Shown here one piece after another: positions 19,186 to 24,529 of a stretch of DNA of 64,000 bases. The notes under the pieces were generated by a model that was not told the DNA's origin, did no database searches, and saw only the letters and a program-made list of their open reading frames with translations. The position numbers and the translations under genes are program-made. The stretch is from a bacterium (lineage in GTDB: Bacteria > Zhuqueibacterota > Zhuqueibacteria > Residuimicrobiales > Krinioviventaceae): positions 832,001-896,000 of the forward strand of contig CAXXFV010000023.1 in NCBI GenBank assembly GCA_963674595.2, in the 5' to 3' direction. Numbering within the stretch: the first letter of the stretch is position 1; every line of letters starts with the position of its first letter.

Positions 19186-19998
19186 ATGGATCCGGAACTT
19201 ATAAACCAGATAGTAAAGGAAGTAAAAAACTCCCTGCAGCAGGACGGGCAAATCAATCTGTCCGCCGCGGCCGGAACTGCTTTCCCCGGGGACAGTGTTC
19301 GCGGCCGTAACGAAGATTTTCTGAAAAGAATCTTCGTTACTGCCGATGACCTGCTGGCCCGGATCACTGCAGGCGGTTCCTCCTCAGTGGAGCTGGCTTC
19401 CAATGAATTTCTCACACCGGCAGCAGCGGACCTGGCAGCGCGCCGAAAAATCGGAATCACCCGGAAAACAGAGTCCCTGAACAGGCCCGTTTCCAGACCG
19501 GTACCGGCGCAGAAATCGATTCCAACCTGGAAGGATGTTCCGCTTTCAGCTTCCCGGAACAGTACCGGCACCGGCCCCGTCGGGCTGATCACCTATTTCC
19601 CTGATGAAAAAACCGATTCCGTGCTGCAAGCCCTGGCCCATGACGGGATCTTTTTCACTGACTGCACTGACGATGAATGCTGGATGGTGAACCTGTTAGG
19701 CCTTTGCCGCAGGATCACTGCCGGCTCCCTGTCTCTCGGAGTAGCTCTTTTCCCCTTTGGAGCTGACGCTCTCATAATGGCCAACAAGGTCCCGGGAATC
19801 AGGGCTGTACAAGGGACAAAAATCGAATCAGTCGCGGCTTCGGTGCGCAGGCTCAGCACCAACCTGCTAATCCTGGAGCACCGGGTTTCAACCTTTCACG
19901 AGCTGCGGGCCATGACCAGGATTTTTGTGCAGAACCGGATGGTCTCCGGCCTCGCTGACGACGTGATCAAAAAAATTGAAGAAGTCGAAAAACATTAA
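19186..19998 (+). CDS. BMC-associated protein with encapsulation peptide and degenerate RpiB/LacAB domain
   Basis: N-terminal PELINQIVKEVKNSL; LTPAAADLA motif; ANKVPGIRA...STNLLIL matches RpiB, but CGTG is replaced by FPFG. Confidence 0.75.
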   Translation: MDPELINQIVKEVKNSLQQDGQINLSAAAGTAFPGDSVRGRNEDFLKRIFVTADDLLARITAGGSSSVELASNEFLTPAAADLAARRKIGITRKTESLNRPVSRPVPAQKSIPTWKDVPLSASRNSTGTGPVGLITYFPDEKTDSVLQALAHDGIFFTDCTDDECWMVNLLGLCRRITAGSLSLGVALFPFGADALIMANKVPGIRAVQGTKIESVAASVRRLSTNLLILEHRVSTFHELRAMTRIFVQNRMVSGLADDVIKKIEEVEKH

Positions 19999-20035
19999 AC
20001 CAGGCCGGCAATAACGGATCCTGGGAAAGAGAATA

Positions 20036-20347
20036 ATGCGGATAGCTAAAGTAATTGGAAAAGTGGTTTTCAGCAGGAAGCTGGATGAAGTGGTACCAGG
20101 GAATTACCTGGTGGTACGAACCTGCAACCGGGGTACCCTGGCCGGACAGAATGACGGAAACGAGGAAACCCCGGTGATCTATGATTCCCTGGCAGCCCGG
20201 GAAGGCGACCTCGTTGGCATGGTGGAGGGACGGGAGGCCACGGCTCCATTCTATCCTGAAAAAGTTCCTTTTGAATGCTACTGCGCCGCGATCCTGGATA
20301 CGGTGGATTTTGACCCGATACTGCCGCTTTCCATAGAAGAAGAATAA
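20036..20347 (+). CDS. BMC-P pentameric vertex protein
   Basis: MRIAKVIGKVV...YDSLAAREGDLV..EGREA..PF...CAAILD. Confidence 0.9.
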   Translation: MRIAKVIGKVVFSRKLDEVVPGNYLVVRTCNRGTLAGQNDGNEETPVIYDSLAAREGDLVGMVEGREATAPFYPEKVPFECYCAAILDTVDFDPILPLSIEEE

Positions 20348-20423
20348 GGCCGGTTTCATTGACCTGGAAGCCGGTTAATAAAAAGTTTATTTGAAATAAG
20401 GTTAGTTTTGGAGAATTAATAAA

Positions 20424-21398
20424 ATGGTCAGTGAATGGGAAGTAAAAAAAGAAATCTGTGAATTAGGCCGCAGGATGTATATCAACGGCTACGTCGCGGC
20501 CAATGACGGAAACATCAGCTTCCGCATGGGCGACGGAAGGTATCTCTGCACCCCTACCGGTGTATCCAAGGGTTTCCTGAAACCAGGAGACATCGCGGTT
20601 GTGGATGACAAGGGAAAACAGCTGGACGGGCCCCTGCCCCGCACCTCAGAAGTCCTGCTGCACCTGGAGATCTTCCATGAGCTTCCCTGGGTAAACGCGG
20701 TATGCCATGCCCATCCGCCCCATGCCACGGCTTTCGCGGTTTCGGGCATCCCGATTCCAACCGGTATCCTGCCGGAGGTGGAGATCTTCATCGGCCAGGT
20801 CCCCCTGGCGGATTACGAGACCCCCGGCAGCAAGAATTTCGCCGAAACCGTGCTGCCCCATCTCAAGAACAAGGCCAACACCATCCTACTGGCCAACCAT
20901 GGGGCGGTAGCCTGTGACAAAAGTTTATTACAGGCCTATTTCCACCTGGAAACACTCGACATGTACTGCAAGATCCTGCTGCTTTCCAAGCAGGTCGGAA
21001 ACATCAACCGCCTGCCCGGCCAGAAGGTCAAGGAATTGTTAGACATCAAGAGCAGTTTGGGCCTGGAAGACCCCAGGCTCGAATGCACCACCGAACAGTG
21101 CATTCTGGCAGGCAGCGACGAATTTCTAAAGGGATTCTCCTCTTCTCCCATACCCCAGCACAGCACCAGCCCGGACGGGCATGGCCGGGGACTGGGAATC
21201 GAAGGTGAAACCAGTCAAAAGGGAGAGCCCCAGCCCATGCCCAGTAATTCTGTTGGTATTTCAGTTATGGCAGCGGGAAAGCTTTTAGCCGGAAGTGCCA
21301 AGCCCGGCAGCAGCTCCGCCACGGCCCAGCGCCGCGCCCAGGAAGACGAAATCGAACGCGTCGTCCAGCTGGTCACTGACCAGATTGTGGGAGGGTAA
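20424..21398 (+). CDS. Class II aldolase (fuculose/rhamnulose-1-phosphate aldolase-like), BMC signature enzyme
   Basis: GNIS, TPTG.SK, TSEVLLH, HAHP and ANHG; long linker then C-terminal EIERVVQLVTDQIV encapsulation peptide. Confidence 0.92.
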   Translation: MVSEWEVKKEICELGRRMYINGYVAANDGNISFRMGDGRYLCTPTGVSKGFLKPGDIAVVDDKGKQLDGPLPRTSEVLLHLEIFHELPWVNAVCHAHPPHATAFAVSGIPIPTGILPEVEIFIGQVPLADYETPGSKNFAETVLPHLKNKANTILLANHGAVACDKSLLQAYFHLETLDMYCKILLLSKQVGNINRLPGQKVKELLDIKSSLGLEDPRLECTTEQCILAGSDEFLKGFSSSPIPQHSTSPDGHGRGLGIEGETSQKGEPQPMPSNSVGISVMAAGKLLAGSAKPGSSSATAQRRAQEDEIERVVQLVTDQIVGG

Positions 21399-21529
21399 TT
21401 GCGGGATGGAAGCCCGCTAATCGGAGATTCTAAATTTCAGATTCAAGATAAAATTATCCGGCCTTCCGGCTGGTAAATGTCCCTGATGCCTCCGGATTTT
21501 CAGCCATGTGTGATAGGGGTAGGATGTTC

Positions 21530-21772
21530 AGGGCTGGAAGCCCGACAGGTTTCAGCCCAGGGTGAGCGGCAGCGAACCCTGGGTAAAGAAACAGACCCAA
21601 CGAAGAATAGCCCTGGAAGGGCGGCACAAATCTAGAATTAAAATCACAATTGTTGTCATTCGACATCTTCACTCCCCACTTCTTATGTCAGTGTTCTCAG
21701 TTTTAATGTCGGACCTTCAGCCCTCCACATATTTTGTGAAGTTCCGTTTTACCCAGGGTTACGCCCTGGGCT
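21530..21772. repeat. REP/MITE-like inverted-repeat element; its right arm is interrupted by IS110
   Basis: cagcccagggt...aaccctgggt (~21553-21584) mirrored by acccagggttacgccctgggct (21751-21772); agggctggaagcccga mirrored by tcggaccttcagccct. Confidence 0.7.
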
Positions 21773-21859
21773 GATATGTTTTGACCTGTCAAGTTAATAG
21801 ATAATGCTGTTAAAAAATATTTTATTTAAACAATATATCTTGAATCAGGGCGGGACCAG

Positions 21860-22020
21860 GCATTTTGCGATTGTGACTCATGCTGATATACGTGGATTGG
21901 TTACCGACCTGACTTAAATGCGTCGCGGAGCTTGCCTATATCTATTAACAGGGATCATCAACAAGAAACGTCCAGTTGATGCCGATTTAGCCCAGGACTA
22001 GGGTTCTCCTCGCTGGCCTG
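21860..22020 (-). ncRNA. Putative bridge RNA / seekRNA of the IS110 element (boundaries approximate)
   Basis: Non-coding region downstream of the transposase containing segments matching the reconstructed target (21988-21996, 21942-21947) and donor (21883-21889). Confidence 0.65.
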
Positions 22021-22106
22021 ATCCCAGCCTGATTCAAGATGTCTTCCTCCTCTTTACTTGTATTGTTTGTTGTAGTTTATTTGTTCAACATTGTGGTGAA
22101 ACTGTT

Positions 22107-23297
22107 TTAATGGGACTGTTGCAGTTTAGGCATTTCATGACGGGTAATATCCCAGATAAAGCCCAGCAACTCACGGGCAATGGCTACAACCGTTATTTTA
22201 GAATCCTTTCCGGCCATAATCAGATACCGGAATCGTCCGCACAATCTCTTTTGAGCCTTCCACGAAATACTTCTGGCCTCATCAGAAGCTTGAGCCGCTT
22301 TGCTTTTAATATGTTTTGTCTGGCGCGCTGCAAAACGATAAGTCCAGGAAGATTGGGTAAGCACTCTGCGCACATGAGAGTTCCCTGTTCTGGTGATTTT
22401 TCCCATGTGTGTTTTGTCTCCCGTAGAATGGACCATGGGCACCAATCCAACGAAGGACATCAGCTGTGAGGGAGAATCAAAGCGGGTGATGTCGCCCAGT
22501 TCTGCCAGTATGACAATAGCCGTCAGCTTGTGGACACCCCTAAGAGCCATAAGGGAATACACCACCGGCGCTAATGACCATTGCGGAAGCAGCATTTCTA
22601 TTTGTGCCATGATGTCGGCAACCCTTTTGGTGGCTGCTTTTACTGCGTCAATGTATTCCTGCAGGGCTACTTGCTGCCAGTGATGAGGAAATTTCAGGGA
22701 TTCCATCCAGTTCAAGTGAGTCTTGTTCCATCGTTGTTTGCCGGAGGGATAGTAATGGCCATGTCGGAGCACGAAACTGTTGAGCTGATGGCGGGCTTTG
22801 CTCTCTTGAGCCTTGAAGTCTTCTCGGGCCCGTACCAGATCCCGCATAGCTTCCTGTTCCTCATCAGGCACCCATACAGCTTTAAGATCACCGCTGCGTA
22901 AATAATGAGCCAGTTTACATGCGTCTCGTCGGTCTGTTTTAATGCGATCTCCCGGCCTGTTGGGAATCATGGAAGGCGCGATTACCTGACAGTCATGCCC
23001 TGAGTCCAGTATCTGACGATGAAGAGCGTAACCGCAGGGACCGGCCTCATAACAGAATAACAATACCTCGCCTGCGAATTCAGTGGTGAGCTGCTTGATC
23101 AGTTTTTCCACACTCTTAGGTTTGTTGGCAATTTCTCTCCTGAACTCTGGTTCCTCTCTTCCAGATCTGGCTACTGCAACTGCGATGGTTTGACTGTGTA
23201 CATCAAGACCAATATAAGCCGGATAGCTCACTGATTCTTCTGCCTTTGTTGTTGACCTTGTTTTGCTTTTGCTGCTTTCTGAGTTACAATTTTTCAT
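22107..23297 (-). CDS. IS110 family transposase/recombinase
   Basis: YIGLDVH (D), CYEAGPCG (E), KTDRRDA (DD); C-terminal ELGDITRF..GLVP..STG..ITRTGN..VAIAREL. Confidence 0.96.
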   Translation of the reverse strand: MKNCNSESSKSKTRSTTKAEESVSYPAYIGLDVHSQTIAVAVARSGREEPEFRREIANKPKSVEKLIKQLTTEFAGEVLLFCYEAGPCGYALHRQILDSGHDCQVIAPSMIPNRPGDRIKTDRRDACKLAHYLRSGDLKAVWVPDEEQEAMRDLVRAREDFKAQESKARHQLNSFVLRHGHYYPSGKQRWNKTHLNWMESLKFPHHWQQVALQEYIDAVKAATKRVADIMAQIEMLLPQWSLAPVVYSLMALRGVHKLTAIVILAELGDITRFDSPSQLMSFVGLVPMVHSTGDKTHMGKITRTGNSHVRRVLTQSSWTYRFAARQTKHIKSKAAQASDEARSISWKAQKRLCGRFRYLIMAGKDSKITVVAIARELLGFIWDITRHEMPKLQQSH

Positions 23298-23635
23298 GAC
23301 CTGTCCTTTCTATTATTTGTGGCGCTGTGCCAGTTAGTTATCTTTAACCAGCATAATCCACGTAGATTAAATAGGACAGGTCAAATCATTATGTCTATTA
23401 TCCCGAGCCCAAAGGCTCGGGATTTTCCGGACCTCCGGCCCGGACTTGTGGATACCGTCTGGCGGCGGTGCTTATGCAATTGCCGGTCAGGAGACCGGCG
23501 TGGGAATAGTTACAGGTCCCAGGGGACAGGTTACAAACTCCCGCTACCCGCAACATGCTGCCTGTAACAGCCGGTCATCAGACCGGCGCAAAGAGACCGG
23601 CGTTCCACACAGGGATGTTTCTGCCCGGTAGGCCT

Positions 23636-24529
23636 TCACAACCGTTTGCTGCTGCCGAACCTGTCCATCACCTCCTGATAATTGATAACAAACTCCGAAA
23701 TATCACGTGAATGGACTTTTTTATAGTAAGCTCCTGTCTCCAGCGCGGCCTCTATTTCCTGTTTCGAAATTTCTATGCCAAGAATTTCAAAAAAGCGATT
23801 GAAATACTGGTACTTGTCCTCAAGAAAGTCTTCATAGAACAAGGGAAAGGCATCGATTCCTTTAGATCTGAACTCTTCCATCAGGCGGTTCTTTCTCGCC
23901 AACATCATCTCCGATTGCGCAAAAATTTTCTCCAGCCGATCACAATCAACATGGATTTTCCCTATATCTTCCCTGCTGATCTTTCCGCTGGCAAGATCAA
24001 ACTGCATATGCCCGGGACGGCAACTCCCGTCACCGTGATACTTGGAGAGGCTCCACCTCAACAGGTCCTGGCGAAAGGCAACAAACACAACAGGATTATT
24101 CTTTTGTAAAACTTCCAGCATCATCCTCCTGAAAGAACGGTTCCTGGATTTCCTGAAAGCCTTTGATGCCCAATTATTCCAGGAGTCGAAACCAAGCGTT
24201 TCCGCAATGCGATTACCGGGAGGCTTGAACCTCATCTTGAAGCCGACGGAGCAGTTCCTATTGGTCTCCTCCAAAGGTTTCAAAGACGTTTTCGTATAGA
24301 TTCGATTCAGCCTGGCAAAATCTATTTCTTGTCCGCTTAACACGATATCGAGGCATTTTTTAAGATTGCGAATAGATATGGGGCCGCATTCATGCCGGTC
24401 GAAAGGCTCCAGGGCGCCCCCTCCCTCATGATGGAGTACCGAAACCCGGTCAAAATTATCCAGCAGCTTCATAAGAGGGCTGGTTCCCTCCTTGCCGATA
24501 AAAAATATAATAAAATTCCTCATATCCAC
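23636..24529 (-). CDS. Sulfotransferase-like (Stf0-like) P-loop protein
   Basis: FIIFFIGKEGTSPLMKLL..EPF, VGFKM, R.DLLRWSLS and YEDF..FFEILG resemble a sulfotransferase fold; PAPS motif is divergent. Confidence 0.55.
   Translation of the reverse strand: MDMRNFIIFFIGKEGTSPLMKLLDNFDRVSVLHHEGGGALEPFDRHECGPISIRNLKKCLDIVLSGQEIDFARLNRIYTKTSLKPLEETNRNCSVGFKMRFKPPGNRIAETLGFDSWNNWASKAFRKSRNRSFRRMMLEVLQKNNPVVFVAFRQDLLRWSLSKYHGDGSCRPGHMQFDLASGKISREDIGKIHVDCDRLEKIFAQSEMMLARKNRLMEEFRSKGIDAFPLFYEDFLEDKYQYFNRFFEILGIEISKQEIEAALETGAYYKKVHSRDISEFVINYQEVMDRFGSSKRL

Follow-up and report, generated by a model that had tools for sequence, protein, structure and literature searches.

A probable IS1111-group bridge/seekRNA with readable target guides in an insertion sequence of a Zhuqueibacterota bacterium

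Results

The insertion sequence and its recombinase gene

The analysed window is a stretch of 64,000 nucleotides (positions 832,001 to 896,000, forward strand, of contig CAXXFV010000023.1, assembly GCA_963674595.2) from a bacterium of the family Krinioviventaceae, phylum Zhuqueibacterota, and all positions given here are counted within it. We found an insertion sequence of 1624 bp at positions 21771-23394 of the minus strand (one copy of the AG core counted), the limits of which were obtained by reading the junctions and aligning the ends to homologues. The element is present in one copy in the 6.6-Mb genome. Its neighbours are a class II aldolase gene, part of a microcompartment-type locus, on one side and an unassigned gene on the other. 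The initial annotation had read the target on the plus strand of the window; read along the transposase strand, as Durrant 2024 (PMC11208160) does and as the top strand is taken here, the core is AG, and it is found at both junctions. At the left junction, the target flank TAAT (23400-23397) is followed by AG (23395-23396) and by the first bases of the element, ACATAATG, from 23394. The right end consists of ATATC (last base 21773), followed by AG (21772-21771) and by the flank CCCAGGG, where CCCAGG (21765-21770) is the right target flank and the 5' arm of a hairpin at 21770-21752. We also detected 15-nt subterminal inverted repeats, 93% complementary and perfect over 11 nt: the left one (23375-23389, minus strand), conserved in homologues, is inset by 10 nt from the left core, and the right one (21776-21790, minus strand) by 4-7 nt from the right core. 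IS1111 elements are described as having such repeats of about 7-17 bp, inset from the ends. In a literature search with the repeat word, the matches listed were to unrelated primers.

An intact open reading frame of 396 aa (22107-23297, minus strand) encodes the transposase/recombinase. The protein belongs to the IS110 family: it combines an N-terminal DEDD/RuvC-like domain (PF01548, DEDD_Tnp_IS110, 3.2e-18) with a C-terminal Transposase_20 domain (PF02371, 8.2e-20), its homologues match it over the full length, and the NCBIfam profile NF033542, 'IS110 family RNA-guided transposase', spans residues 28-388 with 264.9 bits (cut-off 140). The nearest solved structures were the ISCro4 transposase (PDB 9t56, E 1.9e-08), to which the RuvC-like and C-terminal domains align distantly in two short stretches, and the IS621 transposase, a member of the same superfamily that was matched by the N-terminal domain (E 2e-06). 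Judged by eye, GLVPMVHSTG in the translation corresponds to the GL-P----S(t)G motif of IS1111 transposases. The non-coding DNA between stop codon and right end measures 334 nt, versus 97 nt between left end and start codon. The subterminal repeats, the longer non-coding region 3' of the gene and the motif, all characters of the IS1111 group, are present together. Unlike the IS1111 transposases, for which 330-350 aa are quoted in Siddiquee 2024 (PMC11187229), the protein is longer.

In the reconstructed empty site, the insertion point falls in the linker that separates two hairpins. Its exact 12-nt form occurs 4 times in the genome (0.8 expected), a 10-nt form 14 times (12.6 expected) and a 9-nt form 36 times (50.5 expected). 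The two-hairpin layout of this site (21752-21770 / 23402-23421) is similar to that of the Acido-Lenti-1 RNA (RF01687), which Rfam matched on the minus strand at 21530-21583 with 40.8 bits (gathering score 37); this match and the element are 190 nt apart. A literature search on the motif returned nothing usable. We rejected the candidate reading of the target as an Acido-Lenti-1 or REP-like element of high copy number: the genome has just two hairpins whose stem is CCCAGGG, both of them here, we found no paralogue of the empty site in the genome, and the site counts are those given above. Outside the element, 107 nt of the Acido-Lenti-1 region (about 21522-21628) recur with 78% identity at G000:C23:803009-803116 (L002), 50 kb away and beside another weak RF01687 match. 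At 19186-21398, the neighbouring genes for an RpiB-like protein and an EutN/CcmL vertex protein, together with the class II aldolase gene, whose product has a long C-terminal tail, look like a bacterial microcompartment locus.

A predicted two-loop RNA 3' of the gene

We identified a predicted bridge/seekRNA of about 214 nt at 21832-22045 (minus strand), 3' of the transposase gene and enclosed by a closing stem of 20 pairs (22045-22024 with 21853-21832). The interval 21860-22020, which had been proposed as the candidate, lies inside this guide RNA gene, but the RNA reaches further, from 22045 to 21832. The three motifs on which the proposal was based were all recovered at their places on the minus strand: CCTGGGCTA at 21996-21988, TAATAG at 21947-21942 and ATATCAG at 21889-21883. 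The first two lie in a target-binding domain of 83 nt (21927-22009), closed by the stems GGAG/CUCC (22009-22006 with 21930-21927) and CCUA/UAGG (22002-21999 with 21938-21935). This loop presents motif 1, the right target guide (RTG), on its 5' side, a variable inner hairpin, and motif 2, the left target guide (LTG), on its 3' side. The RTG (CCUGGG-CU-A, 21988-21996) is the reverse complement of T+AG+CCCAGG, and pairs with these bases of the top strand; the LTG (UAAU-AG, 21942-21947) is identical to the TAAT+AG of the left junction and, judging from its letters, would pair with the bottom strand. The target guides can thus be read as 6 nt plus core plus 1 for the RTG and 4 nt plus core for the LTG.

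The second loop mirrors the first. In the donor-binding domain (21867-21926), 21926-21921 form the closing stem with 21872-21867, and 21908-21904 an apical hairpin with 21895-21892; the domain encloses a putative right donor guide (RDG, UUAAGUC, 21911-21917) for the left end and a putative left donor guide (LDG, AUAUC-AG, 21883-21889) for the right end, the latter being identical to the right end plus AG, as had been noticed. The RDG position had been read as a weak left-donor match; the position is real, and 6 of its 7 bases pair with the core G and the ACATAA of the left end. The order of the guides differs from the one initially assumed (LTG/RTG, LDG/RDG): from 5' to 3' on the transposase strand it is RTG, LTG, RDG, LDG. 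This copy departs from the consensus of its relatives, at positions conserved in at least 90% of them, at 21877, 21876, 21872 and 21871, which leaves the donor-loop closing stem with 4 pairs instead of 6.

We examined how easily such words arise by chance when the 334 nt of non-coding DNA 3' of the gene are shuffled 2000 times with dinucleotides preserved, the core being required in the words. The 9-mer was reached in 15 of the 2000 shuffles, the 6-mer in 674, the 7-mer in 356 and the fourth, weak match of 5 nt in 978; the two target words were reached jointly in 3 shuffles and all four words in none. Only the 9-mer is therefore unlikely by itself. The matches of 6, 7 and 5 nt, taken one by one, are at chance level in this sequence, and what supports them is the comparative data.

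The fold was examined with RNAalifold on 66 distinct sequences of the relatives described below, after leaving out L081 and duplicates. Of the 40 pairs in the consensus, 30 have two-sided changes among these sequences, and 92.8% of the cells pair, versus 76.0±0.5% in shuffled sequences and 35.9-44.6% when the partners were slid by 1-3 columns. The conserved fold has two internal loops that present the guides. The present copy folds with -73.3 kcal/mol (z -3.58), and none of the 200 shuffles was equally stable. An Rfam 15 scan of 21000-24000 gave no family over 21832-22045 at E up to 1, and there was no bridge or seekRNA model among its matches. In two relatives (L029 and L081) unrelated sequence stands in place of the 3' half of the RNA region, and these are probably disrupted copies.

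Covariation of the target guides with the flanks

A scan for relatives with one genome per species identified at least 545 relatives among the 556 candidate stretches examined, and the best 79 of these loci (48-67% protein identity) were kept with their flanks. We aligned about 230 nt after the stop codon for 75 sequences (five loci lacked an anchor), and located the element ends in relatives through conserved terminal words. Their elements measure 1462 to 1889 bp. In some of them (L009-L011, L013, L015, L021, L035, L023-L026, L028, L031) there are 100-240 extra nt with repeated GC-rich words between the RNA and the right end. A longer context of the right flank after the core, CCCGnATATnTCACC-like, is common to many relatives, mostly from Gammaproteobacteria, with differing left flanks (L004, L006, L008, L013, L016, L017, L024, L031, L042, L043, L081); this context could mark a repeated target that is conserved, or else where another element ends.

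The variable bases of the alignment coincide exactly with motifs 1 and 2. For the RTG, 66 loci with a right flank yielded 61 distinct guide/flank pairs with 39 different guide words. The contiguous complementary run from the core had a mean of 3.82, versus 0.87±0.13 with flanks shuffled among loci, and complementarity at flank positions +1 to +6 was 0.93, 0.92, 0.90, 0.82, 0.51 and 0.34, the all-against-all expectation being 0.42, 0.34, 0.31, 0.30, 0.25 and 0.27. Runs of at least 4 were found in 41 out of the 61 pairs and runs of at most 2 in 13; four loci (L017, L018, L019 and L037) have one common RTG although their right flanks differ, and at two of them the fit is poor. Across loci the LTG match is short (2-4 nt plus the core): over 63 pairs the mean run was 2.43, versus 1.44±0.09 shuffled, and identity was 0.98 at -1, 0.87 at -2 (0.48 expected), 0.44 at -3 and 0.37 at -4. 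The high value at -1 reflects a conserved T, which adjoins the core in 98% of the 63 loci. For neither target guide did any of 10000 shuffles reach the observed mean.

We also scanned the mutual information of each RNA column with each flank or end position. The top three values join 21991-21993 to the flank positions +1 to +3, the value for 21994 and flank +4 comes fifth, and that for 21945 and left flank -2 is also high; the remaining high values involve one end position that marks a clade and are phylogenetic. The covariation among homologues that the initial annotation had named as a check is therefore present, the guides changing with the flanks over more than 60 homologous insertions. 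In five loci (L004, L006, L008, L045 and L079) the RTG has UU, not CU, opposite the core. The right junction of L004 has AA in place of AG, and the other four keep AG, which implies a U:G wobble.

The putative donor guides

The element ends are nearly invariant, and the donor guides are for that reason less well proven than the target guides. The right end was located in 70 of the 75 loci with an aligned RNA. In 65 of these the LDG and the right end agree: 64 have an identical word at both places and one (L041) has a matched double change, with ATAACAG in the LDG and the right end alike. The exceptions are three loci in which the LDG reads ATCTCAG and the end is an unchanged ATATCAG, without compensation, together with L004 (variant core) and L081 (misaligned). 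The pairing of the RDG covers 4-5 nt in relatives; it is never perfect and reaches one base of the core. In L027 the left end changes from C to T together with a change from G to A in the RDG, and the RDG fits more poorly in L030, L034 and L059/L060. Donor guiding by the second loop is plausible on these sequence comparisons, at a strength below what covariation would establish.

Predicted junction promoter and left-end leader

By analogy with IS621 and ISEc11, the element would excise as a circle joined at AG. When the ends are joined in this way (junction computed from the coordinates), TTGACA (21792-21787), which overlaps the right repeat, is followed after 17 nt by CATAAT (23388-23393, minus strand), its predicted promoter partner on the other side of the junction. 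The principle of a junction promoter is described for the IS110 family in PMC12288879. A promoter scan gave no sigma-70-like minus-strand promoter inside the element. The predicted junction promoter would transcribe leader, gene and RNA as one unit, and the RNA would then be trimmed. Of the two loops in the resulting complex of recombinase and RNA, one would pair with the junction of the circle, its counterpart with a site of the TAAT / AG / CCCAGG type, and strand exchange at the core, presumably catalysed by the bound recombinase, would insert the element.

The leader (23310-23396) is structured and conserved. In it, a conserved CAGAGCC[R]C word supplies the CCR that pairs with a YGG, the pair being UA in 40 and CG in 15 of 56 sequences, and compensatory changes are numerous in an inner hairpin. 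The start codon (23297) lies in the stem of a hairpin whose arms are 26 nt long (23297-23322 / 23358-23383, 77% complementary), and this may limit translation from read-through transcripts. A match to mir-1426 at 23295-23384 was rejected as a chance match, because it falls on this leader hairpin.

The apical hairpin in the donor loop, AAUCCACGUAUAU (21898-21886), has a complement in the leader, a conserved motif with a CGYGGRTT core (23355-23367, minus strand). The complementarity is 92% over 13 nt in this copy, and the position of the motif is constant in relatives, about 33 nt inside the left end. Over 58 loci the longest match between leader and hairpin had a mean of 5.66 nt, versus 3.34 in shuffled leaders. 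Over 40 distinct combinations 7.58 out of 10 positions pair, versus 7.14±0.11 with loci shuffled (0 of 5000), and one position has a C:A mismatch in 8 of the 40. This complementarity may simply result from the likeness of two YGG/CCR hairpins. We regard it as rather unlikely that the two pair, as an RNA-RNA contact or as a third RNA-DNA contact; if they did so as RNAs, the level of the guide RNA would be coupled to translation of the transposase. In the parts of the bridge/seekRNA literature covered, we found no description of such a link between leader and donor hairpin. Another candidate, a perfect 11-nt complement of the LTG region (21939-21949) at 21793-21803, directly inward of the right repeat, was rejected, as it is present in 1 out of 62 loci; it is either a lineage-specific feature or chance.

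The element in public sequencing runs

At least half of the 31-letter words of the stretch were found, near-identical, in 12 out of the 24 public runs listed; parts of it that a run leaves uncovered carry no weight. In metagenome contigs of run X5, similarity to the window ends at 21764 on the right side (core and 7 flank bases shared) and at 23400 on the left side (core and 4 flank bases shared), and these breaks fit another insertion that shares the guided bases alone. Another copy in X5, a variant, departs from the window at 21769, its own guide lying outside the covered part. A joint in X5 from 21727 to 23395 was considered as an excision and rejected: it has a 21-letter side and differs from the expected precise excision. 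Contigs of relatives of about 95% identity from RNA libraries cover 21800-21962 and parts of the gene; they could come from DNA carry-over or read-through, and are at best a weak hint of expression. In run X24, which belongs to the same study and has next to none of the sampled words, we found one short piece of 90-95% and no empty site.

Discussion

Altogether, we consider the RNA very probably a genuine bridge/seekRNA of the IS1111 group, about 214 nt long with two stem-enclosed loops and accompanying an IS110-family DEDD recombinase. The group assignment follows from the reversed guide order, the subterminal repeats, the position of the RNA 3' of the gene and the GL-P----TG motif. We compared the element by published description with the IS1111 elements ISEc11, ISPa11, ISKpn4 and ISPst6 (PMC11187229), with which it has in common a DEDD transposase with GL-P----S(t)G. 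As in these elements, there are subterminal repeats and a long non-coding region 3' of the gene, and the top-strand segment of the RNA stands 5' of the bottom-strand segment, with an overlap at the insertion point; Siddiquee 2024 (PMC11187229) describes this order for IS1111 seekRNAs as the reverse of that of IS110-type elements. The target domain in these elements is about 82 nt, versus 83 nt here (PMC11187229). Unlike these elements as described there, the present one has another target and a clearly conserved second loop of the donor type.

IS621, of the IS110 group (PMC11208160; structures 8wt6 and others), also has two internal loops with the core inside the pairings. In each of its loops, as is predicted here, one guide serves the bottom strand left of the core (LTG, and likewise LDG) and one the top strand right of the core (RTG, and likewise RDG). 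Its circular intermediate with a junction promoter is also what we predict here. The analysis in PMC11208160 works with a nine-base LTG and a four-base RTG, compared with 6+2+1 nt for the RTG and 4+2 nt for the LTG here. Unlike in IS621 as described there, the RNA lies 3' and not 5' of the gene, the guide order is reversed within each loop, the core is AG on the transposase strand, and the subterminal repeats are long. By the description available in PMC12288879, ISPpu9/ISPpu10 of Pseudomonas putida have AG at both ends where recombination occurs, as here, as well as a structured 5' leader, which limits translation of the transposase there and is also structured here, and insertion beside hairpin (palindromic) sequences. 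ISPpu9 is described as differing in its upstream bridge RNA, in a native promoter in place of the junction promoter and in the extra small RNAs Asr9 and Ssr9.

We considered whether the RNA guides the target alone, the second loop being structural or protein-binding and the ends being recognised by the recombinase via the subterminal repeats. For ISEc11, an 82-nt seekRNA with the target matches alone is reported to have supported transposition better than the long form, and the target domain here has nearly that size; the near invariance of the ends means that the identity of the LDG in 65 of 70 loci could be shared conservation, and a single matched double change for the LDG and a single one for the RDG stand beside three uncompensated LDG changes and an imperfect RDG pairing. 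However, the second loop repeats the layout of the first (5' strand complementary to the top strand on the right, 3' strand equal to the top strand on the left plus the core), L041 and L027 alter RNA and end together, and donor-binding loops are described for IS1111 elements in Durrant 2024 (PMC11208160), so that a target-only function seems to us distinctly unlikely. The 3' region might also act as DNA, as a binding or regulatory site of the recombinase, with the flank matches as a by-product of insertion-site preference: the RNA here is known from sequence prediction, and in other insertion sequences the stretch between gene and right end is a common place for binding sites. Yet a fixed protein preference cannot produce 39 guide words that vary with the flanks, 30 of the 40 helix pairs keep pairing through two-sided changes that include G-U intermediates, which is the signature of an RNA, and guiding by RNA is shown experimentally in relatives of the family according to PMC11208160 and PMC11187229; we give this reading almost no credence.

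Whether this copy is still mobile is a separate matter from the nature of its RNA. It is the only one in the genome, the four other exact 12-nt sites are unoccupied, and two of its four departures from near-invariant RNA positions break pairs of the donor-loop closing stem, as might be expected of a genuine RNA gene stranded in an immobile copy. Against this, the 396-aa frame is uninterrupted and can be aligned with relatives over its whole length, the repeats, cores and guides are all intact, the guides match the flanks perfectly, and near-identical 31-letter words of the stretch or part of it occur in 20 out of the 24 runs listed, from 11 studies; the runs that cover 21871-21877 (X3 and X5) show no difference there. 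A stranded copy is accordingly very unlikely. The favoured reading is a bridge/seekRNA gene in a putatively mobile element, for which transcription and processing of the RNA, its binding by the protein and catalysis would follow the course known from its relatives.

The proposal of a new programmable RNA-guided recombinase orthologue is fair as a prediction, and such systems have already been described. Specialists will not be surprised by it, since Durrant 2024 (PMC11208160) gives bridge RNAs predicted for 93% of the catalogued IS1111 elements, and the supplements of Durrant 2024 and Siddiquee 2024 may already hold a model or relatives of this RNA. The element adds one natural and apparently intact, putative RNA-guided recombinase with fully readable guides, from a clade in which environmental bacteria provide hundreds of relatives. 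Their alignment gives a consensus structure and a guide map of the clade, usable for target prediction or for picking orthologues, and the analysis shows that, after the junctions have been located, raw sequence is enough for reading the guides of this family.
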